Source: a virus. Taken from it: a DNA stretch of 64,000 bases. Under the pieces are notes generated by a model, which did no database searches, had not been told where the DNA came from, and saw only the letters and a program-made list of their open reading frames with translations. The position numbers and the translations under genes are program-made. Positions 1 through 63,206 of the stretch are shown here, piece after piece; position 1 is the first letter of the stretch, and each line of letters starts with the position of its first letter. Where the stretch lies: the IMG/VR virus record IMGVR_UViG_3300006188_000008; one strand, given 5' to 3'.

Positions 1-390
1 TTGCTTCCAAGTAGACCTGGTTTCTGGAGGATTATAGCACATAACAACTTTAACTTCATTATGGTAAGTATCATCTACAGTTCCATAATGGGTATCAAAT
101 CCTTTAAGAGCCATGGAACTGCGTCCTCTTACATCAATAACAGTGCCCCAAGGAATTTCTGTTCTTTCAACAATACCTCCACCATAAGCAAAAACATTAT
201 TTACTTTCTGCATTCCGGGCAATACTGGGACGAATCCTTCTCCTTGAATTTTAAGGAAAGTTCCTGTAGAAACTAACTTTCGGTCTCCGGGTTTGAAAAC
301 TACAGTTTCTGAAGCTTTAAGATCTGCTCCAGCGTCTGTAGGATTTGCCTTTTCCAAAGTAAAATCTGAAACATACTCAACTGTCAACAT
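1..390 (-). CDS. dut: dUTPase (trimeric type), 3' end beyond window
   Basis: Hand translation from ATG at 390 (not in ORF track): MLTVEY...DAGADL...RGRSS...GTVDDTY = dUTPase motifs 1-3. About 25-aa insertion between motifs 1 and 2. TAATG overlap with pth stop. Confidence 0.88.
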   Translation of the reverse strand, partial: MLTVEYVSDFTLEKANPTDAGADLKASETVVFKPGDRKLVSTGTFLKIQGEGFVPVLPGMQKVNNVFAYGGGIVERTEIPWGTVIDVRGRSSMALKGFDTHYGTVDDTYHNEVKVVMCYNPPETRSTWKQ

Positions 391-956
391 TAATTACCAA
401 CCCACTTACTTAATTCTAAAGAACTACTTTCAAAAACACTTTTTAGTTTGCCTTGTTCTTCAATTGTAAATTCTTCTAACACATATTTAATAGTTTTAAT
501 ATTATTTGGTTTTTCACCAATTCCAATTCTAATACGATCAAAATTATCACCAAAATGTAGAATCATATTTCTAATTCCGTTATGGAAACTAGTATTAGTT
601 TCTTTCTTTGGTTTTACAATTCCTAAAGGTAAAAGCAACTCATCTACTAAAATTACTACTTTTGCATTCCTATACTCGTAATAATTACTTTCAAGAAAAT
701 CTTTAACCATTTCTCCAGTGGAATTAATACATTTTTGAGGTTTAAGATAAAGAGTGTCATCTTTAAGAGCCCAATGAGCTACCTTATTTTTAGTATTAAG
801 ATTAATTTTTCTAATAGCTAGAAAATCATCTAAAGCCTTATAACCTATATTATGTCTAGTATTAAAAAGATTCTCTTCTGGATTTCCCATACCAATCACA
901 ATACGTTTTACTTCAGTCTTTTTAAACTGACTATAAATTTTCTTAAAAATATTCAT
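390..956 (-). CDS. pth: Peptidyl-tRNA hydrolase
   Basis: IGMGNP, NTRHNIG, LKPQ, VDEL, HNGI, RIRIGIG, YVL motifs; catalytic N, H, D, H positions present. Confidence 0.92.
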   Translation of the reverse strand: MNIFKKIYSQFKKTEVKRIVIGMGNPEENLFNTRHNIGYKALDDFLAIRKINLNTKNKVAHWALKDDTLYLKPQKCINSTGEMVKDFLESNYYEYRNAKVVILVDELLLPLGIVKPKKETNTSFHNGIRNMILHFGDNFDRIRIGIGEKPNNIKTIKYVLEEFTIEEQGKLKSVFESSSLELSKWVGN

Positions 957-3732: not shown

Positions 3733-6255
3733 TTACCATCTATAACTTTCAATATTGAAATTTCTCATAATACGATCTCTAGCATACCAAGCCATCAGAA
3801 TAGAGGCAACACTGTCGGGCAAATGTTTTGCGCCATACGCTTGTTCATAAGTCAAATATTTTAATTCTTGTTCTAAGAATTTAATTCTTGGCATTTTAAT
3901 TTTCCTTTGCTGGACACAAGAAATAAATTTATTCATAAGATTTTCTAGAAGTTTCTTATTAGAGAAATTAATAGGGTAAGAATTATTTTGAACTATCTCT
4001 GAAACAATTTGGGACATACCTGTTGCATCATGGGCGGCGGGGCCTGGGAAATTAGAAAGAATTTCATCATATTTCTCTACCATTTTCTTAAGACCTGATT
4101 CTCGCTCAGGTCTATGCCAGTAACAAAGATAATCTACGCCTTCAGGATCAGAATTAGATCCAAACACAGAAAATACCGTCCAGTCGATTTTTACTCCCCA
4201 GTCGGCTCCTGTATAAAAGGAATCAATTTCTTTACTAGGAAATTTATCAGGATCCATAATTACTTCTTGCCCTGGAGCACCTTCATATACTCCAAGATCT
4301 GGATCCATCATCCATTCAATATCATTAAGATTAAATACAGTGTTTTCTGCTGCTGGTTCACCATTTTCAAACTGTCTACGCCAAACCTCAGGTGAAACCA
4401 TAGATTTCATGCGTTCCATTTGATCTACAGTTAGATACCCACCATTTTCAGCTAGAACGTCCTTGTAACAAAATTCATAAACAGGGGTGACTACTTTACC
4501 AGCAACTTTATTTGCTGCATTTGCTCTGTCAATAAATGCCGAAAGGGTTCCTCCTGAAGCATAGTGAGTTGAAGAAATTAAAATATTTTCTTTAACGAAG
4601 CCAATAGGATGAGCACAAGGAATTGCTCCGTCAATTAATTCAAGATCGCAAACGTCCGCCTCGTCGATTCTAAGTCTTGAAGGTCTTTGTCCATAAACTG
4701 AGGTTGGAGAGGCGGGGAGGCATTTAATGAGTCCCCCTGTCACAATACGAGAGGACTCCATCAATTCCGCCTTACGGTCTTGAAGAGCTTTAGGAGCATT
4801 TACGGAAGTCCAAAACATTCCTTGAGTTCGTGTATTGACTTGACTAATATATTCAAAGACTTTTCTAGATTGAGTTTGAGAACCTCCTAAAATTAATACT
4901 TCAGCATTCAAATTAATTTGTTCAGTTAACGCAAGAGCACCTACCAACACTGAATTATGTGTAACCACTAAATTATCTGTAAGGTAGGTTTGAGTTTGAC
5001 TATCTACAGTTATACATGAAGCTTGTTCATATTTTTCTAGATACTCAATACTTCTAATATTTCTTTTAATAGGATTACATTTTGGAGGTTGATATGCTTC
5101 AGCTTTTCTTTTTAATTTAAAGGGATTAAAATCTAATTTAATTCTTGTTTGATATTGAGGTAAATAAGTTTCTTTTTCTTTAGATTTATCTCTAATTCCA
5201 GTATAAGCTACGCCTCCCAGAGATTGTACAATAAATCTAACCGCCTCAGTTAAATGTTTAGAGGTTGAAACAAAACTAGCTCCTCTACTTTCTGACTTTA
5301 CTGCTGTTCCGTCTGTATCAAAAAGACCACGAAGTAATTCAAGTCTTTGATCAATAGAAGAAAATAAATATTGCTTAGGAACAAATTTAGTATCACACTT
5401 TAATCCATGCAGCCCTAATTCTTTAAGTTTATCTGTTAGAAAATTTCTAAAAACACTTCCTTCTCTATAATGTCCTACAAGTCTGTATTGAAAAGGAGCA
5501 TTATATTTTACTTCCATACCTTCTGGTAAGCAAGGAATGATGTTTTCAATAGTTTCATAATCATTAGGATGCGCTGATATGTTGGGAGTGCTTCCTACAA
5601 GACAACCGTCACCCAATAATACTCCTAATAGATAAGGATGGATAGGAAGATCTACTTCAGGAAATTCAATGGGCTTTACAATAGGAATTTGCCAATTTGA
5701 GGCATTATTTTTTCTTCTTAAATTTCCTACTAAATCTTTAGTAGCTTTTACTTGCCACTTATCTGTATGAAAATCTCTTTGAACTGTCCATAAATGATCT
5801 TCACAGCAATCTACATAGGTATGATCACCAAATTTTACTCTAACCATCTGCTTTAGGCCCTGAGGAAATACTCCAGTTACATTAACTGGTTTTCCGTCCA
5901 TATCAATTACTTGATCTCCAACTTTAATTTCTCCCATAGTTGTCCAACCTGTGGGTGTTAAAAGTTTAGAGGAATGACCAAGGGCTTTGCCTGTTCCCCG
6001 AGCACCTTTAAGAACAATTAAAGGATATCGAGCATAAAAAGCGTCACTAAAGACTTTAAAAGGAGGAGTGCAAGGTACAGATTTTTTAGCACACTCCGGG
6101 TGACATTTATCAGGAAAGGATATGTTCCAAAAAAATTTAAGATAATTCTTAAGTCTATGGTTTTCTTCTTCTTCTCTACCTGGGCCCAGGGGAAGAAGGG
6201 GCTTTTGCGCTAAAATACCCAATTGTTCTTCTCTAGATAGACTATCAAAGTCCAT
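3733..6255 (-). CDS. Terminase large subunit with intein
   Basis: Walker A GARGTGK|S, Walker B LRIDEAD, nuclease ADWG..D and HLPD acidic motifs. Confidence 0.85.
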   Translation of the reverse strand: MDFDSLSREEQLGILAQKPLLPLGPGREEEENHRLKNYLKFFWNISFPDKCHPECAKKSVPCTPPFKVFSDAFYARYPLIVLKGARGTGKALGHSSKLLTPTGWTTMGEIKVGDQVIDMDGKPVNVTGVFPQGLKQMVRVKFGDHTYVDCCEDHLWTVQRDFHTDKWQVKATKDLVGNLRRKNNASNWQIPIVKPIEFPEVDLPIHPYLLGVLLGDGCLVGSTPNISAHPNDYETIENIIPCLPEGMEVKYNAPFQYRLVGHYREGSVFRNFLTDKLKELGLHGLKCDTKFVPKQYLFSSIDQRLELLRGLFDTDGTAVKSESRGASFVSTSKHLTEAVRFIVQSLGGVAYTGIRDKSKEKETYLPQYQTRIKLDFNPFKLKRKAEAYQPPKCNPIKRNIRSIEYLEKYEQASCITVDSQTQTYLTDNLVVTHNSVLVGALALTEQINLNAEVLILGGSQTQSRKVFEYISQVNTRTQGMFWTSVNAPKALQDRKAELMESSRIVTGGLIKCLPASPTSVYGQRPSRLRIDEADVCDLELIDGAIPCAHPIGFVKENILISSTHYASGGTLSAFIDRANAANKVAGKVVTPVYEFCYKDVLAENGGYLTVDQMERMKSMVSPEVWRRQFENGEPAAENTVFNLNDIEWMMDPDLGVYEGAPGQEVIMDPDKFPSKEIDSFYTGADWGVKIDWTVFSVFGSNSDPEGVDYLCYWHRPERESGLKKMVEKYDEILSNFPGPAAHDATGMSQIVSEIVQNNSYPINFSNKKLLENLMNKFISCVQQRKIKMPRIKFLEQELKYLTYEQAYGAKHLPDSVASILMAWYARDRIMRNFNIESYRW
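4954..5985 (-). mobile_element. Intein (344 aa) with LAGLIDADG endonuclease, Ala1 / class 3-like
   Basis: Starts A after GTGK, ends THN before Ser; HLW block B, Cys in block F (ASCITV); LLGDG and LFDTDG motifs. Confidence 0.92.
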
Positions 6256-11610: not shown

Positions 11611-13191
11611 TTAAACTCTTTCTAAGGCTCCAGTTCCTTGACTAGCATATTTCATAATCTCTTTTTCAAAAGAAGTTTCTTTAAGCATACTCCAATTTCT
11701 AATAACTTCAAACATTCCATTATTAAATCCAGAGACATAGAGAACATCTGGATCTGTAGGAAGTTGAGTGTTAGAAGTTCCTTGAAGATCAATCATAACA
11801 AACTTAGCATTAGGATTATTTCTTTTAATATTTTTCCAAGCTGCGTGTGCTTCGGTAGATCTTCCGTAATTGATATATTGTTTATTGTTTTCATCATCTG
11901 AAAACATAACAAAATAATCTACCTTATGCTTAGCACCTTGAACTGATTGAAGACTAGAAGCAATAGAAGTGCTGCTTCCCGAAAATCCAATTCTATCTAC
12001 ATTAGTAACTAAACTGTCCATAGGATTTAAGTTGGAAGTAATTTCTCTTGCCGAAGAGTCAAAAGTATACACCTTTGAATTAGGATTTTTCTTTAAGAAA
12101 GCACAAGCCATTAAACTAGCTACTTGAAAACAAGTAAGCCTATGGTCTACTCCAGCTCTAGGAGCTTCAGTATTACCATTTACTTTTGCTCCCATTGAAC
12201 CGGAAACATCAATAGATAAAATTACATTTCCTTCCAAAGTTGGAACATTTCGCAAACTATAATCTAAGGCTTGCTGAAGTCCAATACGCATTCTTTGATT
12301 AGTTACGTTTAAATAACTAGTATAGATTTCATGAGGGAACAAATTAGCTTTTACAATTTCTTGCTCATTTGCTAATTTAGCTGCTAGTGTTTCAGCAACT
12401 TGCTGATTATTAAACACTCCCTTTTTCTCTAAATTGTTAATATTCTGACGCAACTGATTCCAAGTCATTTGTTGAGCAAAAATTTGCCATTGTTCCTCAG
12501 AAAGCTTCTCTCCTTTAATTCTTTCAAAAGGAACTCTTGGAATAGGTTGAGTAGTGTCCTTCAACCAATTGTAATAAGTTTGAATTTGCTCGGGCAGATC
12601 CTCAGAATGTTCTCCCTTTCTAATAAGCTTGTAAACAGCCTCTCGTTGCTTGTCTCCCTTGGGAGAGGGATGAGCCATAGCCATGACTGCCGACAAGCTA
12701 GGATTAGCTCCTATTGACTGATTCCATACATCAATAGGACGACGAGAAGAGAACCAAGATTGAATCAACTTACGACCAGCGTAATTTAAATTTTTACTTC
12801 CAAATTGGCCCGTTTGAATAGTTTTCAAAAACCGACGAATACTAGAACCATCGTCACAAACTTTAGGGAAAATCTGTTTCCAATAAGGAGATTTTCTCTG
12901 ACGTAGCAATGCCAGCAAGACAACGCACATATCTTTCATGTGTTGTTTCTTAGTATAAAGAGCACAGGCTGCTACAAATTCTTCAGAACACTCTGAAGAG
13001 AGTTTCTTAACAAGTTCCAATTGCTCAGTTGCCTGAGTATAATATTTGTTATCAAGAAAACCAACACAAATAAGTTTAGCTAAACTTTGCTCTGCGGTTT
13101 CTTTATAAGCAACTGCTCCACTATTGTTAATTTCCGTAGCCTGAGTTGTAGTCGAAGTTCTTTCAGTATAAAGGATACTACTTTTATTCAT
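11611..13191 (-). CDS. Ro60/Rsr-like TROVE + vWA RNA-binding protein
   Basis: N-terminal N.SGAVAY, helical TROVE region, RQNINNL, vWA MIDAS DVSGSM and FSDDE; 526 aa. Confidence 0.9.
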   Translation of the reverse strand: MNKSSILYTERTSTTTQATEINNSGAVAYKETAEQSLAKLICVGFLDNKYYTQATEQLELVKKLSSECSEEFVAACALYTKKQHMKDMCVVLLALLRQRKSPYWKQIFPKVCDDGSSIRRFLKTIQTGQFGSKNLNYAGRKLIQSWFSSRRPIDVWNQSIGANPSLSAVMAMAHPSPKGDKQREAVYKLIRKGEHSEDLPEQIQTYYNWLKDTTQPIPRVPFERIKGEKLSEEQWQIFAQQMTWNQLRQNINNLEKKGVFNNQQVAETLAAKLANEQEIVKANLFPHEIYTSYLNVTNQRMRIGLQQALDYSLRNVPTLEGNVILSIDVSGSMGAKVNGNTEAPRAGVDHRLTCFQVASLMACAFLKKNPNSKVYTFDSSAREITSNLNPMDSLVTNVDRIGFSGSSTSIASSLQSVQGAKHKVDYFVMFSDDENNKQYINYGRSTEAHAAWKNIKRNNPNAKFVMIDLQGTSNTQLPTDPDVLYVSGFNNGMFEVIRNWSMLKETSFEKEIMKYASQGTGALERV

Positions 13192-15606: not shown

Positions 15607-15635
15607 AGTATAAGAGTAACTTGACTCAAAGTCAA
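15607..15635 (-). promoter_or_regulatory. Sigma70-type promoter for clpB-TROVE
   Basis: TTGACT-17 bp-TATACT followed by AGGAGG RBS. Confidence 0.7.
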
Positions 15636-16804
15636 CTGACCGTTTGTAACAAATTTGTTAACAAATCCTCGTAAGTCTCGCTTCTAAGAAGAAACTCTTG
15701 AAATAAAGCGGGACTAATTTTATTAATATAAGGGATAAACTTTTCTTCTTCAAATTGCTGATCTGGGAAAAATATTTTTAAAAATTCTTTGTATTGATAT
15801 AAATCACAATTTTCAAATTTCCAATCTCTATCAATACGTCCAGCTCTAAGCAAAGCTTTATCTAATTTCTCAACATGGTTAGCAGTTAAAATCATAATAA
15901 CTCCTTTTGGAGCAATCAAACTATCAAAAGCAGCTAAGAAGTCATTAAATTTTGGCATATCAGCATCGCAAGCTTCTCGTTGATTATAAATACAATCAAC
16001 ATCGTCAATCAATACAATTGACTCTGAAGAAACTCTACTGATTAGTTTTTGAATATTAGAACATTCCATTAATGAAGCTGAAGATATTACATTGATATCT
16101 CTATTTAATTTAGCAGCTAAATACTGAGCAACACTGGTTTTCCCTGTGCCTGGCAACCCATGCAAAAGATATCCTCTTCTAAAAGGAATATTCTTAGAAC
16201 GATATATTTTTTTATTCTTTAAGAAATTTTTAGCATCATTTAAAATTTCAGTTAAACGGCCTTCAGCCAAGATTGGCTTTAAAACTTCTCTGCTATAAAA
16301 ATTACCTAAATGCTGTTTACTTTCCTTATCAAAAGTATAAACACATCTAGCCGTATCTTTACTTAGATAATGATCTCTTGCTAAGGAACAGAGATACGAT
16401 TCTATGTGTTTGATAGACTCTTTAGAAGTAATATTTATACTAGAAGTTTCTTTCTTAGTTGAATTCCCATCCTTGTCTGTAGTGCAAATAAAAATCTCTG
16501 AAAGAATAATTTCTTTACCTTCGTGATTTACAGTTACAGATCTAGGAGCAAATTCAAAACTACCTTCTGTATACGTTCGTCTAAAATGACTAAAATCTAC
16601 CATATTAGAAATGCCTTGTTGTTGGCACATAACTTCTTTTAAGAGTCTATAGACATCTTTAGTATAAGAAACGGTAACAAGGTATTTATTTCTATGCATA
16701 AATTTTTTATAAGCGGAATTAATTCTGTTAGCAACAGAAGATTTTACTAGATTTCCAACTGTTTCAACTGTCTTTGTTACAAACAGATCCTTCAGCAGAT
16801 TCAC
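15632..16804 (-). CDS. BCS1-like AAA ATPase
   Basis: PFRRGYLLHGLPGTGKTS, IDDVD, TANH..KLDKALLRAGRIDR. Confidence 0.8.
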   Translation of the reverse strand: MNLLKDLFVTKTVETVGNLVKSSVANRINSAYKKFMHRNKYLVTVSYTKDVYRLLKEVMCQQQGISNMVDFSHFRRTYTEGSFEFAPRSVTVNHEGKEIILSEIFICTTDKDGNSTKKETSSINITSKESIKHIESYLCSLARDHYLSKDTARCVYTFDKESKQHLGNFYSREVLKPILAEGRLTEILNDAKNFLKNKKIYRSKNIPFRRGYLLHGLPGTGKTSVAQYLAAKLNRDINVISSASLMECSNIQKLISRVSSESIVLIDDVDCIYNQREACDADMPKFNDFLAAFDSLIAPKGVIMILTANHVEKLDKALLRAGRIDRDWKFENCDLYQYKEFLKIFFPDQQFEEEKFIPYINKISPALFQEFLLRSETYEDLLTNLLQTVS

Positions 16805-20875: not shown

Positions 20876-20952
20876 TGGTGGGAAGAGAATCTTGGCGAGA
20901 CCCGACTTCGGAGTTTTCAATTCCGCGCTCTAACCGTCTGAGCTATCTTCCC
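20876..20952 (-). tRNA. tRNA-Phe(GAA)-like, aberrant T-loop
   Basis: GGGAAGA/TCTTCCC A CCA; CGGAA-TTGAAAA-CTCCG; T-loop TCGCCAA. Confidence 0.8.
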
Positions 20953-20962
20953 ATGTAGCCTT

Positions 20963-21126
20963 AGATTTAAATAGAAATTTGTTAAAAGTGATAACACATT
21001 TTTTACTAGCGCGTTTACCATTCCGCCACTCGTCTATATAGACGAGGCAGGACTTGAACCTGCAAATCTTTCGATACTAATTCCTCATAGAATGTATTGT
21101 TATCTAAACACAAACTTCTAAAACCT
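20963..21126 (-). ncRNA. Circularly permuted tRNA mimic A (YrlA-like, Leu-type body)
   Basis: 5' stems, TACATTC, ATTAG, variable arm, GCAGG-TTCAAGT-CCTGC, acceptor closed by ATAT loop, D-arm GCG-GAATGGTAAA-CGC, CTAGT, complementary 3' stems. Confidence 0.85.
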
Positions 21127-21167
21127 GCAAATTATCGAAACGCTACTAACGATAATTTTAATTAAAA

Positions 21168-21255
21168 AGAGAATTCAACAAACACGAACGGATCAGGATC
21201 GACTAGGAAGGGACGCCAACAAACAAAAGGAGACAAAACACTTGTTGAATTCTCT
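21168..21255 (-). ncRNA. Hairpin RNA with 14-bp stem and 60-nt pyrimidine-rich loop
   Basis: AGAGAATTCAACAA/TTGTTGAATTCTCT starting 1 nt after a tRNA CCA, followed by a T tract. Confidence 0.55.
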
Positions 21256-21256
21256 A

Positions 21257-21333
21257 TGGTGGAGCAGGCTACTTGCCGAGTAGCGACCTCTGCGTTTTCA
21301 ATGCAACGTTCTAAACATCTGAACTACCGCTCC
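21257..21333 (-). tRNA. tRNA-Phe(GAA)-like, aberrant D- and T-loops
   Basis: GGAGCGG/CTGCTCC A CCA; TTGCA-TTGAAAA-CGCAG; D-loop lacks GG; T-loop TCGGCAA. Confidence 0.78.
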
Positions 21334-21931
21334 ATATATTAGATCTATAAAATTCTTTTAACCAAAATCCCTTAGGCTTGAGTTCTATTTGAAATTTTTT
21401 TGCTTTATTAGCAATAGTTTTATCTGAACATCCAAAAATTTTTGCAATTTTTGTTAACGGTAATTTTTCTATAAGATCTTTTAATTCTTCTTTACTTATA
21501 TCAAATTTAGAATGTTTAGGTAAAGATAGAAAGCACTTTTTACACAGTGTAGAATTAGGGTCTTTTACAAATTCATTGCATATATTACATTTTTTTGTAA
21601 TAAAAACACCCTGAATAGTGTAAACACCTTCCTCAGTTAAAGATCTATCTTTCTTTAGACAAGATTTTTTCTTAAGATTTTTTCCTCCAAAAGTTTCAGT
21701 TTGGCTGTGACAATTTTTGCAAAGAAATCTAAGATTTGACAACTCATTATTTCCAGGACATCCGTCAATATGATCTAGATCTAGAGACAAAGGTTTGCCT
21801 TGCCAATAAGGTTCTTGATTACATATTTGACAAACGTAAGGAATTAAGTTTTCTTCTAAAATAATTTTACGATAAAGAGAAGATCTTATACGTTTATTAG
21901 TATCTTTTTCTCTTATAAAGATATTAGTCAT
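21311..21931 (-). CDS. HNH endonuclease with C-terminal HTH (homing-type)
   Basis: CQIC...LDLDHIDG..GNN..SNLRFLCKNCH; C-terminal LTKIAKIFGCSDKTI. Confidence 0.85.
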   Translation of the reverse strand: MTNIFIREKDTNKRIRSSLYRKIILEENLIPYVCQICNQEPYWQGKPLSLDLDHIDGCPGNNELSNLRFLCKNCHSQTETFGGKNLKKKSCLKKDRSLTEEGVYTIQGVFITKKCNICNEFVKDPNSTLCKKCFLSLPKHSKFDISKEELKDLIEKLPLTKIAKIFGCSDKTIANKAKKFQIELKPKGFWLKEFYRSNIWSGSSDV

Positions 21932-22025
21932 AATAACCCTAGTATTATGACTATATAAAAAAGAAACCTTTTCTGTTAAAAAATCCTACCTAAAAAATTA
22001 TTCGGGACACAGATAATTTCTTTAA

Positions 22026-22101
22026 TGGTGGAATCTGACAACAATCACATTTGCCGATCTGAGTTTTTCACGCCCATGCTTTATTACTAAGCTAAGATTC
22101 C
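22026..22101 (-). tRNA. tRNA-Phe(GAA)-like, strongly degenerate T-arm
   Basis: GGAATCT/AGATTCC A CCA; TGGGC-GTGAAAA-ACTCA; no D-loop GG; no TTC loop. Confidence 0.65.
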
Positions 22102-22106
22102 ATAAC

Positions 22107-22183
22107 TGGTGGGAGAAAGTGGAATTACACGCACTGACCTCCGAGGGTTCAATTCGGCGCTCTGACTACTGAGCTATTCTCCC
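22107..22183 (-). tRNA. tRNA-Phe(GAA)-like, aberrant D- and T-loops
   Basis: GGGAGAA/TTCTCCC A CCA; CCGAA-TTGAACC-CTCGG; T-arm AGTG-CGTGTAATTC-CACT. Confidence 0.75.
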
Positions 22184-22256
22184 AGGAGGCTTCAATCGTC
22201 GCTTAAGGAGGAAATTATTCTCTGCCCGAAAGTCTGATCAAAACCTTGTATAACTT

Positions 22257-22375
22257 TTAAACTTGCTGAACAATTTTCAAAATTAAACTAATAACTAAAA
22301 CAGCTAAGAATAATTTCAAAAGAAGTTGACCAGCACAATAGCTACTATGAAGAATATTACTGCCCAATGAAGCAT
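22257..22375 (-). pseudogene. Frameshifted DUF1328/UPF0391-like small membrane protein remnant
   Basis: Frame 1 MLHWAVIFFIVAI; second frame AGQLLLKLFLAVLVISLI; central GFGG segment missing. Family recognised from memory. Confidence 0.45.
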
Positions 22376-22476
22376 TATTGGTTAACTACAACGCGTTCAA
22401 CCCAACGCAATACTTCCACAAAAACTTTAGCTCCAGTAAGAGCTGCTTTCAATCCAAGCCAAACAACAGTTTTCAT
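22375..22476 (-). CDS. 33-aa amphipathic small protein
   Basis: GGAG RBS; MKTVVWLGLKAALTGAKVFVEVLRWVERVVVNQ. Confidence 0.45.
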   Translation of the reverse strand: MKTVVWLGLKAALTGAKVFVEVLRWVERVVVNQ

Positions 22477-22477
22477 T

Positions 22478-22696
22478 TTACTCCTTATAACTCGCAGTAG
22501 TGACATTAAATACAGGTCCTGTCATGCCTACAGAACACATAGAGTCTTCTAGTTCACCTTCTAGAACTAATTCATAACCTTCTACTTGAAGATTTTCATT
22601 CAATCCTTCCAAAGTAAACATTTGGCCTTCTTCGGTTTTTAGGACAAGATGTCCACCTTCAAGGTCATTCTTTTCTAAAGTTCCGGTAAGAGTCAT
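22478..22696 (-). CDS. Small beta-barrel/OB-like protein (possibly DUF5818-like)
   Basis: GTLEKNDLEGGHLVL...LEGEL...C..G. Confidence 0.55.
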   Translation of the reverse strand: MTLTGTLEKNDLEGGHLVLKTEEGQMFTLEGLNENLQVEGYELVLEGELEDSMCSVGMTGPVFNVTTASYKE

Positions 22697-22722
22697 AATT
22701 TTTCTCTTTTCAAAATAATAAG

Positions 22723-22851
22723 CCCGTTAAAATCTTCTAAATAATCGTGGGACAGATGCTCTATCCATTGAGCTACTATAGAATTTCTTCATATAGACAG
22801 GAATTGAACCTGTAACTTTCTGTGGGAATGTAGATTATTTAATAACACGGG
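22723..22851 (-). ncRNA. Circularly permuted tRNA mimic B (YrlA-like, Arg-type body)
   Basis: CCCGT and AAATAAT stems, TACATTC, ACAGA, ACAGG-TTCAATT-CCTGT, acceptor closed by GAAA loop, GCTC-AATGGATA-GAGC, TCTGT, complementary 3' stems. Confidence 0.85.
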
Positions 22852-22856
22852 TTTGT

Positions 22857-22935
22857 TGGTGGAGCAAACTACCTCGGTAAGTAGTGTCCTTCGGGTTTTC
22901 AATCCGACGCTCTTGGACCACTGAGCTATCGCTCC
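22857..22935 (-). tRNA. tRNA-Phe(GAA)-like, aberrant 8-nt T-loop
   Basis: GGAGCGA/TTGCTCC A CCA; TCGGA-TTGAAAA-CCCGA; ACTAC-TTACCGAG-GTAGT. Confidence 0.78.
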
Positions 22936-22941
22936 ATATAA

Positions 22942-23099
22942 AAGAATTTAATACTTAAAGATTATCCAAATTATTTGACTTCAGCCTCTCGTCCACAGAC
23001 TCTTCGTTTATTTCTAAACTGATTAGCCCGGAGGGATTCGAACCCCCGTTTCTCGTAAAAGAAAGAATGTATTTTGGAAGTAGACACTATTAAATTCTT
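22942..23099 (-). ncRNA. Circularly permuted tRNA mimic C (YrlA-like, Glu-type body)
   Basis: 12-bp outer stem AAGAATTTAATA, TCCAAA/TTTGGA, TACATTC, GGGGG-TTCGAAT-CCCTC, extended acceptor closed by GAAA, GAC-GAGAGGCTGAA-GTC. Confidence 0.8.
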
Positions 23100-23101
23100 A
23101 T

Positions 23102-23177
23102 TGGTGCCCAAAGCCGGTTCTACCCACGGCCACCCCTACGGTTTCAATGTAGTGCTCTACTACTGAGCTATTTGGGC
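23102..23177 (-). tRNA. tRNA-Phe(GAA)-like, aberrant D- and T-loops
   Basis: GCCCAAA/TTTGGGC A CCA; CTACA-TTGAAAC-CGTAG; GCCG-TGGGTAGAAC-CGGC. Confidence 0.75.
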
Positions 23178-23185
23178 ATAAATTG

Positions 23186-23251
23186 CCTAAGTTAACTTTT
23201 AAATTCATTAACTTAGGACTTAACTACATAGTTTTTAAATTCACTATGTAG
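23186..23251 (-). repeat. Two tandem hairpins with the same TGAATTTAAAA loop
   Basis: CTACATAGT-GAATTTAAAA-ACTATGTAG and CCTAAGTTAA-TGAATTTAAAAG-TTAACTTAGG. Confidence 0.7.
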
Positions 23252-23274
23252 AATTGAAGTGAATAACCACGTTC

Positions 23275-23350
23275 TGGTGGGAAAGGATGGGATTGAACCA
23301 CCGACCTGCTCTTTTTCACGGAGCCGCTCTAGTCTCTGAGCTACCTTCCC
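23275..23350 (-). tRNA. tRNA-Phe(GAA), canonical T-loop but no D-loop GG
   Basis: GGGAAGG/CTTTCCC A CCA; GCTCC-GTGAAAA-AGAGC; T-loop TTCAATC. Confidence 0.85.
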
Positions 23351-23431: not shown

Positions 23432-23572
23432 TGGCGGAAGAGGAGAGATTTACACTCACCATCCAAATTAGTGAATTCTAAATCCGGTCGGCAAGAATTC
23501 TTAAAATTACTTCGCAACGAATACTGAAACGAATTAATTACCTAATTTGTATTTTTGTTAAATTACTCTTCC
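23432..23572 (-). ncRNA. 141-nt tRNA-like RNA with acceptor stem, T-like arm and CCA
   Basis: GGAAGAG/CTCTTCC G CCA; GTGAG-TGTAAAT-CTCTC; internal CAAATTAG/CTAATTTG and GAATTCT/AGAATTC helices. Confidence 0.6.
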
Positions 23573-23738: not shown

Positions 23739-23767
23739 AATATACAGGATCGGTTCCGACTTGTCAA
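23739..23767 (-). promoter_or_regulatory. Sigma70-type promoter of the RNA array
   Basis: TTGACA-17 bp-TATATT. Confidence 0.8.
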
Positions 23768-35958: not shown

Positions 35959-38505
35959 ATGTATAATAGAGAGTTTGAATTAGACCTTATATCTTATTGT
36001 CTAAATAAACCTTATTATCTAAAACAACATAAAGAAAGATTAGAATCTTTAAAATTCTCAGACAAATATCTTAATCTTGTTTATAAAGAATTGTTTAAAG
36101 TTTTGGATAGCTATAAAACTATCCCTACTAAAACTGAATTTCAAAAGATTTTAAATGATTCTATGTCTAAGAATGAACGATTTAATGATTTTGAAAAAGA
36201 AGCTGTTCAAGAAATTATCACTTCTATTTATGATAGATATGTCACAAGTCTTACTGGTGTTTCTATTAGTAATTATCTTATTAAAGAAGAAACTGCTAAG
36301 ATTAGTGAAGAGTTAATTAATCTTCAAGCTCAAGATCTTTTAGACCAAATTGGAAGTTATGAAAGAAGATTGTCTAAACTTCGTCATTTTCTTTCAGACG
36401 ATGAAGATCTAGGCCTCAATATGTTCTCTGATCAAGGAATTGCTAAAGCTAAAAATCTTTTAGCAGAGTATAATATTGAAGCTTGTATTCCAACTGGTTA
36501 TGAAATTTGGGATAGACAACTTCAAGGTGGACTGCGTAAAGGTGAATTGTTCGTAGTAATGGCCAGCACAGGTGTTGGTAAGGCCCAGCCCTTAAATGCT
36601 AAAATTGTAACTCCCGAAGGAATGAAAACTATGGGAGATATGAAAGTCGGATCTGAGGTTATAGATTGGGACGGTAATGTTGTTAAAGTAAAAGGCGTAT
36701 TCCCCCAGGGAGAAAAAGATATTTATAAAGTTACGTTTTCAGACGGAACTTCTACTGAATGTTGCGATGAACATCTTTGGTGGGTAAGACATTATTCTAA
36801 TACCAAAAAAGATGAATGGACGGTTTTACCTTTAAAATCGTTTAAAAATAAATTGACTTCAGGTCAAGGCAGAAAAGATTGGCAAATTCCTAACGTAAAA
36901 CCCATCAACCTACCTGAAAAAACTTACATTATACATCCGTATGTTCTTGGAGCTATTTTGGGTGACGGTTCAATAACTGGAAATAATGTAGGATTTACTT
37001 GTGCCGATCCTGAATTGGTAGAAAATTTAAGAGCCCTTATTCCAGAACAAATAGAGTTGGTAAAACACAATACAAAAGCAGATATAGATTACCAATTTTC
37101 TAAAAGAAATGATCGTAGACATCCTCATGTTAAAAATGTTTATTTAGAAGAACTTAGACGTTTAAATTTAATGGGCTGTAATTTTCACACTAAATTTATC
37201 CCAGAAGAGTATCTTTGGGGATCTTTAGAACAAAGACAAGCTTTACTTCAAGGTCTTATGGATACAGATGGACATTTAAGTGCAAGTAAAAGTGGAATTG
37301 ACTATATCTCTGCTTCTTTAAATCTGGTTACTTCTGTAAAACAGTTAGCCCTATCTTTAGGTGGAAATGTTGGAGAAATTAAAACTAAAATTGTAGAAGG
37401 TAAAACTTATTACAGATTATTTTTTAATATTCCAATTTGTCCCTTTAAGTTGTCTAGAAAAGCTGAAAATTGGAATCCTAGAACTCACTATGGTTACAAA
37501 AGAATTATAGACAAAGTAGAATTTGTTAGAAAAGATCAAGCGCAATGTATCAGGGTAGATTCTCCTACCAGCAGTTATCTAACCGACGATTTTATTTTAA
37601 CTCATAATACGGCGTTTCTGTTAAATATGGCTGCAAATATGGTAAATCAAGATTATCGTGTAGTTTATGTGGCTATGGACAATGTAGAAGGCGAATTAAT
37701 TGCTAGAACTGTCGGCTGTCTTATGGACAGAGATATCACACAAAAACTTGATCCTAATGCAGCCTTTGATGACGTTTCTGATAAGTATACCAAACATTAC
37801 ACTAATAATTTTATTATTAAGCATTTTGCTCCAAGAGAACTTACTAAGTCCAAACTTGAAAGATATTTAGATAGATTAGAAATTTATCTTTATGATTTAG
37901 ATAAAAAGGCTGGTAAACCTGAAGATAAATGTGGTAAAATTGATGTTTTAGTTTTAGATTATTTAGAATGCATGCTTCCAGAATCAGGAGCCGGTGAATT
38001 CTGGATTGCTGCGGAACATCTTGCCCAAGAAGTAAAAGCAGTTCTTAAGACTAGAGATATTCTAGGATTAACTGCTACTCAAGGTGGAACCGAGGCTATG
38101 AAATCGGACACTTTAAAACTTCACATGGCACAGGGCGCTAAGAGTCGATTTAACGCTCCTGATTTGGTGTTTGGTGTTTCTCAAAATGAAGACGAAAAGA
38201 AAGCTAGACCTGCTAGTAAATTTCGTCTTAGTTGTCTTAAAGCTAGACGAGCTAAAACGAATTATGAAATTGCATTTGTTTTCTATAAGGAGAAACAAGT
38301 TATTAAGGAAGATCCTGTATATTCAGATGTTTTAGGAGTTTCTACTACAACAAATTCAGGACCGCCCACAAATGAAGACGGAACTGAAGTAGCTATGAGA
38401 AACAATTTTAATCGCCAATCTAGCTTTCAAATTAAAGACCCTGTAGACAAAGTAATTGGTGAGTTAAGTAAAACATTAGAGGGTATAGAATCCTTAACTA
38501 GCTAA
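35959..38505 (+). CDS. DnaB-like replicative helicase with intein
   Basis: GGLRKGEL..V.ASTGVGK|T, LDYLE, TATQ, ARR motifs. Confidence 0.9.
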   Translation: MYNREFELDLISYCLNKPYYLKQHKERLESLKFSDKYLNLVYKELFKVLDSYKTIPTKTEFQKILNDSMSKNERFNDFEKEAVQEIITSIYDRYVTSLTGVSISNYLIKEETAKISEELINLQAQDLLDQIGSYERRLSKLRHFLSDDEDLGLNMFSDQGIAKAKNLLAEYNIEACIPTGYEIWDRQLQGGLRKGELFVVMASTGVGKAQPLNAKIVTPEGMKTMGDMKVGSEVIDWDGNVVKVKGVFPQGEKDIYKVTFSDGTSTECCDEHLWWVRHYSNTKKDEWTVLPLKSFKNKLTSGQGRKDWQIPNVKPINLPEKTYIIHPYVLGAILGDGSITGNNVGFTCADPELVENLRALIPEQIELVKHNTKADIDYQFSKRNDRRHPHVKNVYLEELRRLNLMGCNFHTKFIPEEYLWGSLEQRQALLQGLMDTDGHLSASKSGIDYISASLNLVTSVKQLALSLGGNVGEIKTKIVEGKTYYRLFFNIPICPFKLSRKAENWNPRTHYGYKRIIDKVEFVRKDQAQCIRVDSPTSSYLTDDFILTHNTAFLLNMAANMVNQDYRVVYVAMDNVEGELIARTVGCLMDRDITQKLDPNAAFDDVSDKYTKHYTNNFIIKHFAPRELTKSKLERYLDRLEIYLYDLDKKAGKPEDKCGKIDVLVLDYLECMLPESGAGEFWIAAEHLAQEVKAVLKTRDILGLTATQGGTEAMKSDTLKLHMAQGAKSRFNAPDLVFGVSQNEDEKKARPASKFRLSCLKARRAKTNYEIAFVFYKEKQVIKEDPVYSDVLGVSTTTNSGPPTNEDGTEVAMRNNFNRQSSFQIKDPVDKVIGELSKTLEGIESLTS
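36583..37608 (+). mobile_element. Intein (342 aa) with LAGLIDADG endonuclease, Ala1 / class 3-like
   Basis: Starts A after GVGK, ends THN before Thr; HLW, AQCIRV, ILGDG, LMDTDG. Confidence 0.92.
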
Positions 38506-39734: not shown

Positions 39735-40706
39735 ATGAGCTTAATTGCCGAACCCTCTAAAGCAGGCCCTCCTAGAATAATTTTAGATAGGGAAAATCTT
39801 TATGATTTATACGTAATTAAAAAGTTTTCTTCTAGAAAAATTGCTAAACTTTTATTTTGTAGTAAATGGGTGGTTTTACGTTGCTTAAAAGATTATAATA
39901 TAAAAATAAGAGCCTCCGGTTCAGGAGCTGAGGAATACTTATATAGTGACGAAAATTATTTTAAAAAATGGTCACCTTCCATGGCGTGGGTATTGGGATA
40001 TATGGCTTCCGACGGATTTGTTATGGCCAGAGGTTGTGGAATTTTCTTTACATCGGTAGACTTAGAACTTTTAGAATTTTGTAAGAAAGAGTTAAAAACT
40101 AATTCAGAAATACGATATAGAGAAGACTATCATTCCAAAAAATCAGGTTATAATATTCACACCCTATATATTCCTGGAAAAGAATTAGTTAAAGATTTAA
40201 AAAATTTAGGAATTGAAACTAAAAAATCTTTAGTTTTAAAATTTCCTGATTATTTAACTGAAGAATACTTTTGGCATTTTTTAAGAGGATATATTGATGG
40301 AGACGGTTGTGTATATGACCCAAAATATAAAATAGGTGTAAATTTTACAGGAAGTGTTTCTTTTATAACCACCTTAAGAGAAATTCTGGTAAAAAGATTC
40401 GAAAAACATATCCAAAATTTTAGACCTACAGGACAAGCTTTGTCTTTAGACGTTAATAGCATGACCGCTTATAAAATATTAAAGTTATGTTATGATAATT
40501 CAGAATTTGCTTTATCTAGAAAAAAAGATAGGGCTTTAGCTGCTATTAAATTAGTTGAAGAACGATTAGAAAATAGAATTTTTTGTGATATTTGTATAAA
40601 AAATAAAGAATTATTACCTAAAATTCAATGTAAAGCTTGTGTTAAGCTAAGAAAACATGCTTATTTCAAAAAAAACTATAATCCTAAAGAAAAGAAAAAT
40701 TTATAA
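39735..40706 (+). CDS. Free-standing LAGLIDADG homing endonuclease
   Basis: WVLGYMASDG and FLRGYIDGDG; N-terminal HTH. Confidence 0.85.
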   Translation: MSLIAEPSKAGPPRIILDRENLYDLYVIKKFSSRKIAKLLFCSKWVVLRCLKDYNIKIRASGSGAEEYLYSDENYFKKWSPSMAWVLGYMASDGFVMARGCGIFFTSVDLELLEFCKKELKTNSEIRYREDYHSKKSGYNIHTLYIPGKELVKDLKNLGIETKKSLVLKFPDYLTEEYFWHFLRGYIDGDGCVYDPKYKIGVNFTGSVSFITTLREILVKRFEKHIQNFRPTGQALSLDVNSMTAYKILKLCYDNSEFALSRKKDRALAAIKLVEERLENRIFCDICIKNKELLPKIQCKACVKLRKHAYFKKNYNPKEKKNL

Positions 40707-62243: not shown

Positions 62244-63206
62244 TTAAGATTCTATAATTTGTTTTTGTTTAGCTTTATTTCTTCTATCAGAAATACACTG
62301 TTTACAGTCTTTCTTCTTAGTTCCATCTTTCAAATTGTAGAAAACCGTATTTTCTTCCGTATATTCATGTCCATTAATACATACTTTCTTTTCTCTACCT
62401 TTTAAATTAGCGTCATGACAAATAAGACACTTATTAAAATAACCTCTATTGTCATTCTTATCTTGAATTCTAAAAAGATTATCTTCTGTTTTAGAATGGC
62501 CACATTTAAAATAATTTCGTCTTAAATCACCTTTAGCAATTGACTCTTCGTGACATTCCTTACACACATTTCTGAATCCTTGTTTGTAGTAAGGATGTTG
62601 AAATTCAAAAATATTACTTTCAGATTTTTCGTGCCCACATGGAAATTTACTATTATCTCTAGTTCTTTGTCTAGGTGGAACATAATTTATGTCAATCTCT
62701 AGTTCTGGGTAATTAGCTTGGTCTTTTCTATTTCTACATTTATGAGCATTTACCCTAAGGCATTCTTTACATCGGCGTTTATATCCTATTTTTCCGTCTT
62801 TATTTTTGTATTGAAGAAGAGTTAAATTTTGTTCGGTATACTCATGACCTTTTTTACAATGATTTATGTGGATAGAATATTGGCCAATAGCCCCTCTACG
62901 AACATTTTCTGATTGAGTTACGGGTTCTAAGTGGTCTGGGTTACAACAAGATCTATTTCTGCATAAATGGTCTAAAACTAATTCTTCAGGAGGAATACCT
63001 TTAAAAATTACATAGACTAATCTATGTAATGCATATATTTTATTTTTATAAGTTAACTTACCATAACCATTAGGACAAACATTATCTTCCCAGATCCAAC
63101 ATTCAGTATTGTTATAATATTTTGTATTTTTTATTAAAAAGGGATTAACTCTAGTATTAAAAAAATTGAAATCTCCTATAAAAGGAGAAAAGTGTTCTCT
63201 ATTCAT
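62244..63206 (-). CDS. HNH homing endonuclease with repeated Cys/His modules
   Basis: CWIW, HRL.Y, LDHLCRNRSCCNPDHLE..T..EN; four C..GH.....N...C..C repeats. Confidence 0.85.
   Translation of the reverse strand: MNREHFSPFIGDFNFFNTRVNPFLIKNTKYYNNTECWIWEDNVCPNGYGKLTYKNKIYALHRLVYVIFKGIPPEELVLDHLCRNRSCCNPDHLEPVTQSENVRRGAIGQYSIHINHCKKGHEYTEQNLTLLQYKNKDGKIGYKRRCKECLRVNAHKCRNRKDQANYPELEIDINYVPPRQRTRDNSKFPCGHEKSESNIFEFQHPYYKQGFRNVCKECHEESIAKGDLRRNYFKCGHSKTEDNLFRIQDKNDNRGYFNKCLICHDANLKGREKKVCINGHEYTEENTVFYNLKDGTKKKDCKQCISDRRNKAKQKQIIES

Follow-up and report, generated by a model that had tools for sequence, protein, structure and literature searches.

All phenylalanyl-tRNA synthetases (PheRS) recognize G34, A35, A36, and A73 of their tRNA, and the E. 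coli enzyme also reads U20 and U59 at the elbow (PMC9976931). The monomeric mitochondrial PheRS (human FARS2, 3CMQ/3TUP; yeast MSF1), a single chain with a PheS core and an FDX-ACB domain, has a minimal identity set consisting of G1-C72, A73, the CCA end with its C74, and the anticodon, and it leaves the elbow, including position 20, uncontacted (PMC9976931); its partner tRNAs lack the canonical interaction between D-loop and T-loop. In phages, genes for aminoacyl-tRNA synthetases are already known from large genomes (PMC7162821), and several phage tRNAs evade host defenses, including the T5 tRNA-Lys that counters PARIS, a tRNA-Tyr that counters retron PtuAB, and anticodon-loop variants (PMC11464382, PMC11555353, PMC10264068). 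Here, we analyze a 64,000-nucleotide stretch of IMG/VR virus record IMGVR_UViG_3300006188_000008 (the whole stretch is referred to as the window), in which seven tRNA-Phe-like genes, t1 to t7, occupy positions 20876 to 23350; elsewhere in its genome, the same phage encodes the PheRS-like ligase SrmL. The combination of array and ligase belongs among phage tRNA sets and minimalist PheRS/tRNA-Phe pairs. We show that the seven genes are a selected, structurally conserved family of tRNA-Phe-type RNAs, and we tentatively propose that, together with SrmL, they form a phage-private ligase/tRNA-Phe module, whose charging and decoding steps we infer.

Accounts of phage tRNAs have, to our knowledge, so far invoked either codon supply or the evasion of anticodon nucleases, and they have in every case dealt with single, canonical, host-charged molecules. 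In contrast, this locus has one isotype expanded to seven paralogues, with the elbow lost or rebuilt and the PheRS identity set frozen, and the genome carries its own ligase and a Ro60/Y-RNA set. As in the defense-evading tRNAs, the sequence departs from host tRNA at positions recognized by nucleases; those tRNAs, however, are single, otherwise canonical, and charged by the host, whereas the window array consists of one-isotype paralogues with changes at the elbow and at the 31-39 position and is accompanied in the genome by a private ligase gene. Compared with the mitochondrial pair, the proposed phage pair has seven tRNA paralogues, and its ligase falls in the separate SrmL family with a remodelled amino-acid pocket. 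In Staphylococcus, extra tRNA-Gly isoacceptors in which G18G19 and TΨC are replaced are charged by the normal GlyRS, are barred from translation, and are consumed by FemXAB as substrates for the cell wall; no Fem-type enzyme was found in the phage genome. The tRNA-like structures at the 3' ends of turnip yellow mosaic virus (TYMV), brome mosaic virus (BMV), and tobacco mosaic virus (TMV) are also chargeable mimics that keep the acceptor, CCA, and identity nucleotides without the full tRNA architecture, but these are ends of RNA genomes with pseudoknotted acceptor arms, as opposed to free-standing cloverleaf genes in a DNA phage. An eLife paper on anticodon-loop escape by phage tRNAs contains nothing on Phe, mismatches, or T-arms, and our literature search turned up no account of a tRNA-Phe family that is both multi-copy and elbow-remodelled, of a co-array of such a family with Y-like RNAs, or of its co-occurrence with SrmL.

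Infernal, ARAGORN, and direct reading place seven CCA-ended cloverleaves on the minus strand, exactly where the original prediction, made from the letters alone, had put them. Six of the seven pass the gathering score of RF00005 (29 bits) with 40.5-52.4 bits: t1 (20876-20952; 40.5 bits over 20879-20952, and 80.5 bits with R1), t2 (21257-21333; 41.0 bits over 21260-21333), t4 (22107-22183; 42.4 bits over 22110-22183), t5 (22857-22935; 46.7 bits over 22860-22935), t6 (23102-23177; 43.0 bits over 23105-23177), and t7 (23275-23350; 52.4 bits over 23278-23350). The weakest copy, t3 (22026-22101; 28.5 bits over 22029-22101, and 68.5 bits with R1), falls 0.5 bit short. Folding additionally supports t1 and t5, and ARAGORN detects only t7, the most canonical copy, as tRNA-Phe(gaa). 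Each copy has a 7-bp acceptor stem, U8 and A9, a 4-bp D stem, a five-position anticodon stem with a 7-nt loop, a variable region of 4-5 nt, and a T hairpin of 5-7 bp. By direct reading, U33-G34-A35-A36, A73, an encoded CCA, and G1-C72 are present in all seven, which bears out the predicted invariance of U33-GAA and A73 and makes the universal tRNA-Phe identity set (G34, A35, A36, A73) complete in every copy. Position 37 is A in six copies and C in t4.

Outside these positions, the copies differ widely. In t1, the acceptor strands are GGGAAGA and TCTTCCC, the anticodon loop is TTGAAAA, the T-loop is TCGCCAA, and the D-loop contains GG. The T-loop of t2 is TCGGCAA and its D-loop AGATGTTTA; t3 (41% GC) has the anticodon loop GTGAAAA, a T-loop of 9 nt, and no GG; t4 has the anticodon loop TTGAACC and a T-loop of the GTGTAATTC class. 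A 7-bp hairpin with an ACCG loop forms the T-arm of t5, which has the anticodon loop TTGAAAA and GG in the D-loop, while t6 combines the acceptor strand GCCCAAA and the anticodon loop TTGAAAC with a bulged T-arm whose loop is GTAGAA. The D-loop of t7 (AGAGACTA) lacks GG, its anticodon loop is GTGAAAA, its 31-39 position is C31.A39, and its T-loop, TTCAATC, is the only one of the TTC type, so that the six T-loops reported originally to lack TTCRA do lack it. Since G18G19 occurs only in t1 and t5, and the TTC-type T-loop only in t7, no copy has both canonical halves of the elbow. The D- and T-loops vary in both length and sequence, so positions 20 and 59 are not confidently assignable.

At position 31-39, every one of the copies has A.C or C.A, so the anticodon stem ends in a non-standard closing pair. 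A31.C39 is also found in the canonical tRNA-Leu(UAA) of this phage (window 17484-17568, minus strand) and in tRNA-Phe genes of many unrelated phages (L030:6700-6773 and loci L001-L021), and may be a general trait of phage tRNAs. A DNA-pattern search of IMG/VR, combining the D-arm with an ATTGAAMMC loop, returned only unrelated phage tRNA-Phe genes; the pattern itself demanded A31.C39, and its occurrence in ordinary phage tRNA-Phe is to be read accordingly. A reading of the UGAAA loop as a GNRA tetraloop was rejected as inconsistent across copies.

Other tRNA genes of the phage provide an internal control. The tRNA-Leu(UAA), which is found by ARAGORN and scores 43.6 bits with RF00005 (the mismatch being marked), has a normal elbow with a canonical T-loop and D-loop GG, and was the only one of three inspected by eye; tRNA-Arg(UCU) and tRNA-Ile(UAU) lie outside the window. 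All three must use host synthetases, score as ordinary tRNAs (43.6-66.6 bits), and match the A/U-rich codons of the phage.

DNA searches yielded no relatives of the phage (blastn against INPHARED gave only generic tRNA-Leu and HNH matches, none close), and relatives were therefore sought through proteins. As a single query against IMG/VR, the Ro60/Rsr homologue encoded in the window had no match, and Rsr-profile scans of IMG/VR and the JGI metagenomes found only distant relatives at about 30-45% identity. The closest different lineage, lineage B, is represented by L113, a 62.8-kb Logan contig on which a 217-aa neighbor protein is 71% identical to that of the window, and by L026, whose Rsr is 53% identical. 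L113 carries an array of seven tRNA-likes together with three YrlA-like RNAs, a homologue (74 aa) of an open reading frame (ORF) in the window array, and the same promoter, TTGACA-17-TATATT; relative to the window, the array order is rearranged and an HNH gene is absent. Among the seven L113 tRNA-likes, UGAA is kept in six, the 3' end reads ACCA in six and GCCA in the remaining one, TΨC loops are missing throughout, and the Phe identity set (G34, A35, A36, A73) is found in six. Two orthologous pairs could be aligned: t2 with L113-b (L113:14969-15043; blastn, 75% over 89 nt), whose D-loops (AGATGTTTA) and T-loops (TCGGCAA) are identical despite compensatory changes in the acceptor, D, and T stems, and t4 with L113-g (L113:15878-15953; 75% over 72 nt), which have the GTGTAA T-loop class in common.

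In more distant relatives, L030 and L032 (Rsr 42-45% identical), a mixed array of Met-like, Phe(GAA), and Ala(UGC) tRNAs and YrlA-like RNAs precedes rsr, with an additional Ile-like RNA and mini tRNA-likes in L030. Because the anticodons of these arrays are mixed, the all-Phe state is an expansion specific to the lineage of the window and its sister, which is the single informative sister lineage in our data. Distant Rsr-bearing jumbo phages (L036, L039, L040, L063, L100) have a conserved tRNA-like family of their own, GGGGGAG-TAGCTCAGAGAAAGAGC..., with A73-CCA, an expanded anticodon loop (ATACCGTAAGGAAAA), and no G18G19; some copies have the anticodon AAA and the same TCGGA/CCCGA A31.C39 stem as t5.

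These comparisons allowed us to address whether the array is maintained by selection. The seven copies are 41-74% identical in pairs, and at that divergence an anticodon free of selection would not remain GAA seven times. Stem cells are paired in 92.5% of cases, compared with 64.0 ± 2.6% in shuffled sequences and 36-47% when the 3' partners are slid, and 17 of the 21 stem pairs have changed on both sides among the seven copies. When the L113 copies are included (n = 14), the acceptor and D stems are 100% paired, with double changes at six of the seven acceptor pairs; G1-C72 and CCA are present in all 14, A73 and U33-GAA in 13 each, non-canonical T-loops in 13, and a T at position -1 in 12, which, together with the encoded CCA, would fit processing by RNase P and immediate chargeability. 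Deep divergence combined with paired, covarying stems shows that the seven genes are not decaying duplicates. The claim that selection retained Phe-type identity elements while the elbow diverged is thus upheld, and the conservation and covariation sought in related phages were found: L113 conserves the design and the stems covary over 14 copies. The original prediction had also named the pattern expected under neutral decay, relatives with random anticodons or eroding stems, and this is contradicted by the covariation and by UGAA in six of the seven L113 copies. We therefore consider it hardly credible that the array arose by decay of tandem duplicates of a single tRNA-Phe gene. The weak score of t3 and its GC content of 41%, the erosion of some lineage B anticodon stems, the rearranged order of the array, and the insertion of an HNH gene would agree with decay, but it does not account for complete pairing with compensatory changes in 14 copies, for stems and an anticodon that would be lost at this level of divergence if unselected, or for orthologues that share identical non-canonical loops while their stems covary.

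The original prediction had further stated that no copy has an intact elbow. This holds for the canonical elbow, which is absent in all copies, but t1 and t2 can form substitute pairs between the loops. In copies d, h, and i of L113, the D- and T-loops are complementary over six positions (TGATTA/TAGTCA, TAGTTA/TAACTA, and TAGTTA/TAGCTA; shuffle P values of 0.004-0.02 each), and the pairs occupy matching columns of the alignment (17-23 with 72-78) and covary, with G-C/A-T switching to A-T/G-C. In t1 and t2, four and five of the six pairs form, respectively. Over all 14 copies the helix is 62% paired, which limits it to one subclass. Thus, "no canonical elbow" is an accurate description, while "no elbow" may go too far: some members seem, judging by covariation in a small sample of six sequences, to hold their corner by a Watson-Crick loop-loop helix. 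If true, a covarying D-loop/T-loop helix would be a new way to build the corner of a tRNA.

Screening the complete phage genome for tRNA-Phe-using proteins gave a tRNA-synt_2d (PheS core) match at C1:9606-10238 (E 3e-28). It belongs to SrmL, a 384-aa ORF (G000:C1:9441-10595; L121:4442-5596) outside the window, which is the reverse strand of positions 76203-140202 of the full phage record G000:C1. SrmL matches PF01409 at 96.8 bits and, over its full length, NF051887 ("PheS-related mystery ligase SrmL") at 370 bits against a cut-off of 300, whereas the second-best family, TIGR00469 (mitochondrial PheRS, pheS_mito), reaches 121.5 bits, below its cut-off of 258, and TIGR00468 (PheRS alpha) 94.6 bits, below its cut-off of 237. 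Its homologues join PF01409 to the FDX-ACB anticodon-binding domain PF03147, and the family profile ranks human mitochondrial PheRS first among solved structures. The AlphaFold (AF2) model (pLDDT 93.5) has 3CMQ as its best PDB match, at full length (TMq 0.80), and class II motifs 2 and 3 are intact. As modelled, SrmL is a single-chain, mitochondrial-type PheRS-like ligase with an anticodon-binding domain. RtcB and Rnl ligase were absent from the genome in family searches.

SrmL is catalogued as a family but is unstudied, and we found no paper on it in a literature search; members occur in at least 538 bacterial species and also in jumbo phages. The protein described here is a full-length member of this family, which has no known substrate and for which we propose a candidate set of RNA partners. 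In one phage contig (L126), which has 25 tRNAs, the only two tRNA-Phe(GAA) genes stand one on either side of SrmL, an arrangement with a chance of about 0.003 under random placement; in L127, SrmL is preceded by a tRNA-Phe at a distance of about 120 nt; and in L124, two tRNA-Phe genes and a GGAA tRNA with an 8-nt loop lie within about 8 kb of it. The latter, at L124:1832-1906, is a jumbo-phage tRNA whose 8-nt anticodon loop ARAGORN reads as "ggaa". The IMG/VR record behind L123, which carries the closest viral SrmL (48% identity) and is a "provirus" estimated to be 28% complete, gave no tRNA-like matches, and five SrmL-bearing bacterial genomes had ordinary-looking tRNA sets with one top Phe-like match each, as judged from match lists. 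We conclude that SrmL mostly travels with tRNA genes in phages, and that the Phe set, seven-fold and elbow-remodelled, is a peculiarity of the lineage of the window.

Upstream of SrmL, a protein with a BCS1_N domain (L121:3891-4445; G000:C1:8890-9444) matches the N-terminal part of phrog_7485, and a 390-aa AAA protein near ClpB and Rsr (window 15632-16804, minus strand) matches its C-terminal part, which looks like, from these matches, a BCS1-like ATPase split between the SrmL and ClpB/Rsr loci. The order BCS1_N-SrmL-(332/338 aa) is conserved in L212 and L213. In L212 (Logan ERR2985276), the SrmL homologue P0016 matches its database protein only when TAG is read as Gln, and this relative may use a recoded stop codon.

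These observations lead to the module that we tentatively favor. SrmL would charge the seven tRNA-Phe-type RNAs as its cognate substrates, and with a private ligase, only G1-C72, A73, CCA, GAA, and the helices would need to be kept. The identity set of the monomeric mitochondrial PheRS type, without an elbow requirement, is present in the 14 copies (G1-C72 and CCA in all, A73 in all except one), and the fact that a monomeric PheRS reads only the acceptor end and the anticodon would be a simpler explanation of both the frozen nucleotides and the free elbow than the functions suggested in the original prediction. The elbow would then be free to diverge, or to be rebuilt in some copies as the Watson-Crick D-loop/T-loop helix. 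Once charged, the RNAs could sustain the decoding of UUU and UUC without recourse to the tRNA-Phe or PheRS of the host; in this AT-rich phage, the two codons together amount to 47 per 1000. Schlafen-type defense nucleases that cleave the T-loop in a UUC-dependent manner, or that cleave the anticodon arm, exist (PMC13462974, PMC13056530), and T-loops without UUC and an opened 31-39 pair would make the RNAs poor targets for tRNA-directed host nucleases. If SrmL charges the array RNAs, this bacterial virus would carry a naturally occurring orthogonal synthetase/tRNA pair, which would also provide the first clue to a substrate of a widespread family and a parallel in the bacterial world to the co-degeneration of mitochondrial PheRS and tRNA-Phe.

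Several points weigh against this proposal. The Phe-pocket motifs of SrmL are altered (FPF to HNY, FHQxEG to PHQMDV, and GFAFG to GLALG), so the amino acid it activates may not be Phe, in which case ribosomal use of the tRNA-likes would mistranslate UUY codons. SrmL and the array are not neighbors, being about 107 kb apart along the record and about 35 kb across its ends, and the 65%-identical homologues P0016 and P0017, which have the same neighbors as SrmL, lie on short contigs separate from the lineage B array. In a related T5-like lineage (L258), SrmL sits within 23 canonical tRNAs, only one of which is a tRNA-Phe, also canonical, and its immediate neighbors are Ile and Arg genes; no tRNA-like gene was found beside SrmL at about 80 bacterial loci. 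Three L113 copies have 6-nt anticodon loops (GUGAAA) and two have poor or eroded anticodon stems, which is unfavorable for decoding. Moreover, RNase P, EF-Tu, and the ribosome normally work less well with RNAs whose elbow is non-canonical, and we know of no defense that hits tRNA-Phe alone. Finally, we found no RNA sequencing run containing the phage, compared with 13 DNA runs.

Some of these points can be read in favor of a non-ribosomal carrier function, which we consider possible but somewhat unlikely. Here, SrmL would attach Phe or a different amino acid to the tRNA-likes to supply a non-translational process, for example an aminoacyl-transferase reaction, and the altered elbows, T-arms, and loop sizes would keep the RNAs off EF-Tu and the ribosome, much as in the staphylococcal non-proteinogenic tRNA-Gly. 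The remodelled pocket, the non-canonical T-loops of 13 of the 14 copies, and the fact that lineage B retains UGAA, A73, and CCA despite its 6-nt loops and eroded anticodon stems are consistent with this idea. However, searches of the 145-kb genome found no L/F-transferase (PF03588), FemAB (PF02388), or CDPS (PF16715), SrmL of jumbo phages adjoins canonical tRNA-Phe genes that would enter translation, and all seven window copies keep the 7-nt loop and U33, as well as, except for t4, A37. A related and, in our view, unlikely version is an orthogonal ligase/carrier-RNA system in which SrmL, with a pocket unlike that of any PheRS characterized to date, attaches to the GAA tRNA-likes either a non-Phe amino acid or Phe destined for non-ribosomal use. 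Such a system could modify a target or recode UUY during infection, with the YrlA-like RNAs and Ro60 in the same RNA-handling module, and it would provide the first substrate for the "mystery ligase" family.

The surroundings of the seven genes bear on two further alternatives to the ligase/tRNA-Phe module. A sigma-70-like promoter, TTGACA-17-TATATT (23739-23767, minus strand; 11 of 12 matches), lies upstream of the entire array, and the stretch is conserved at L113:14363-14430. From this single conserved promoter, we infer that the array is co-transcribed with YrlA-like RNAs, which are permuted tRNA mimics with the order T-arm, hairpin, D-arm. Two such elements on the minus strand, at 20985-21088 (26.6 bits, E 0.028) and 22728-22836 (29 bits, E 0.0057), fall below the RF02553 gathering score of 69, and clearer homologues are present in relatives (51.4 bits in L113 and 45.7 bits in L032). 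A candidate third mimic (22990-23075, minus strand), with a TACATTC motif and a canonical T-arm (GGGGGTTCGAATCCCTC) but no clear D part, was read from the sequence and has no Rfam support. The genes t1 to t7 themselves gave no YrlA match in the RF02553 scan, the sub-threshold matches falling on the separate, interleaved elements. A (T)TACATT motif precedes each YrlA-like element (window 20985-21090, 22728-22840, and about 23060-23075, as well as in L030, L032, and L113); it may belong to the closing stem, as a conserved 5' portion, or act as a processing signal. We also considered permuted or split tRNA genes such as those of red algae and rejected them, as the "halves" are YrlA-type mimics.

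The association of phage Ro60 with Y-like RNAs is already known (PMC4201824, PMC12135203). The window encodes a Ro60/Rsr homologue (11611-13191, minus strand; PF25045 vWA_Ro60, 57.5 bits; phrog_850 RNA-binding protein, 119.5 bits) with which the YrlA-like RNAs presumably associate, and these elements, although below the Rfam threshold, agree with that picture. The YrlA/Y RNAs and the array both tie tRNA mimicry to a Ro60 gene, and YrlA-likes are interleaved with the seven genes, but the two are built in opposite ways: YrlA keeps the elbow (T and D arms) and has no anticodon arm or CCA, while the seven genes do the reverse.

It is worth asking whether the tRNA-likes, together with the interleaved YrlA-like RNAs, could be uncharged ligands of the phage Ro60/Rsr ribonucleoprotein, or could sequester a host factor, such as PheRS, a nuclease, or a sensor, that recognizes the anticodon or acceptor of tRNA-Phe. 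One promoter is common to the tRNA-likes and two to three alternating YrlA-like RNAs; the same co-array lies upstream of or near rsr in L113, L030, and L032; distant Rsr-bearing phages have odd tRNA-likes with expanded anticodon loops and no G18G19; and among the binding partners of a phage Ro60 are Y-like RNAs of the phage and PNPase of the host (PMC12135203). Nevertheless, a Y-type stem or bulge, or else misfolding combined with a free 3' end, is required of known Ro60 ligands, nothing connects Ro60 to an anticodon, the strict conservation of G1-C72, A73, CCA, and GAA matches the needs of an aminoacylation substrate, and the genome encodes a cognate-type ligase. On balance, we regard this function as quite unlikely. 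Also very improbable is that the cloverleaves act only as processing punctuation, that is, as RNase P and RNase Z signals that free YrlA-like RNAs and small mRNAs from a long transcript. They do share a single transcription unit with other RNAs and ORFs, with which they are interspersed, and mostly have a T at -1, but punctuation leaves unexplained why U33-GAA is invariant in 13 of 14 diverged copies, losing the T-loop/D-loop elbow that RNase P reads would be counter-productive, and t4 and t3 are directly adjacent, with nothing between them to release.

Two ORFs on the minus strand interrupt the array: a 72-aa acidic ORF (22478-22696), whose 74-aa homologue occupies the same relative place in L113 and which has a weak DUF5818 match, and a homing-endonuclease-like HNH ORF between t3 and t2 (21311-21931) with a DHIDG...N...CxxCH motif and a weak HTH as its sole Pfam match. 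The first element downstream of the promoter is an RNA of about 141 nt (23432-23572, minus strand) with an acceptor GGAAGAG/CTCTTCC, discriminator G, CCA, and a T-arm of the GTGTAA class as in t4 and L113-g; L113:14641-14719 (GTGGAAG...GCCA, loop GCAAAAAT) has the same array position. Between t2 and the neighboring YrlA-like element, a long hairpin with a pyrimidine-rich loop (21168-21255, minus strand), flagged in an earlier note, has similar CCTC/CTCC-rich stretches in L113 after copy h (16440-16620).

The 145,021-bp record has direct terminal repeats, an estimated completeness of 100%, and about 31% G+C. Contigs of 144,949 bp from the same phage recur across many bioreactor and wastewater assemblies, the 13 DNA runs in which it was detected being from such samples, and four low-share runs aligned to the array contained identical fragments and spurious short matches only, with no population variation. 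As judged from its predicted proteins, its gene content is that of a large lytic tailed phage: it encodes PolA with a UDG-like N-terminal domain, an SNF2 helicase, DnaB, a primase, an SbcCD-like protein and a ribonucleotide reductase with LAGLIDADG inserts, and a ClpB-like ATPase, in addition to Ro60/Rsr. A peptidyl-tRNA hydrolase, Pth (window 390-956, minus strand; PF01195, 124 bits at G000:C1:139301-139807), is also present in the Rsr-bearing relatives L028 and L030, and a RimL-type GNAT acetyltransferase (PF13302; 2092-2637, minus strand) lies in the same replication and RNA-handling arm. Homing elements are numerous: LAGLIDADG domains are found within an 840-aa ORF (3733-6255, minus strand) and within the DnaB-like helicase, and another ORF is free-standing (the LAGLIDADG ORFs on the plus strand being at 35959-38505 and 39735-40706), and HNH genes are present both in the array (21311-21931) and at 62244-63206.

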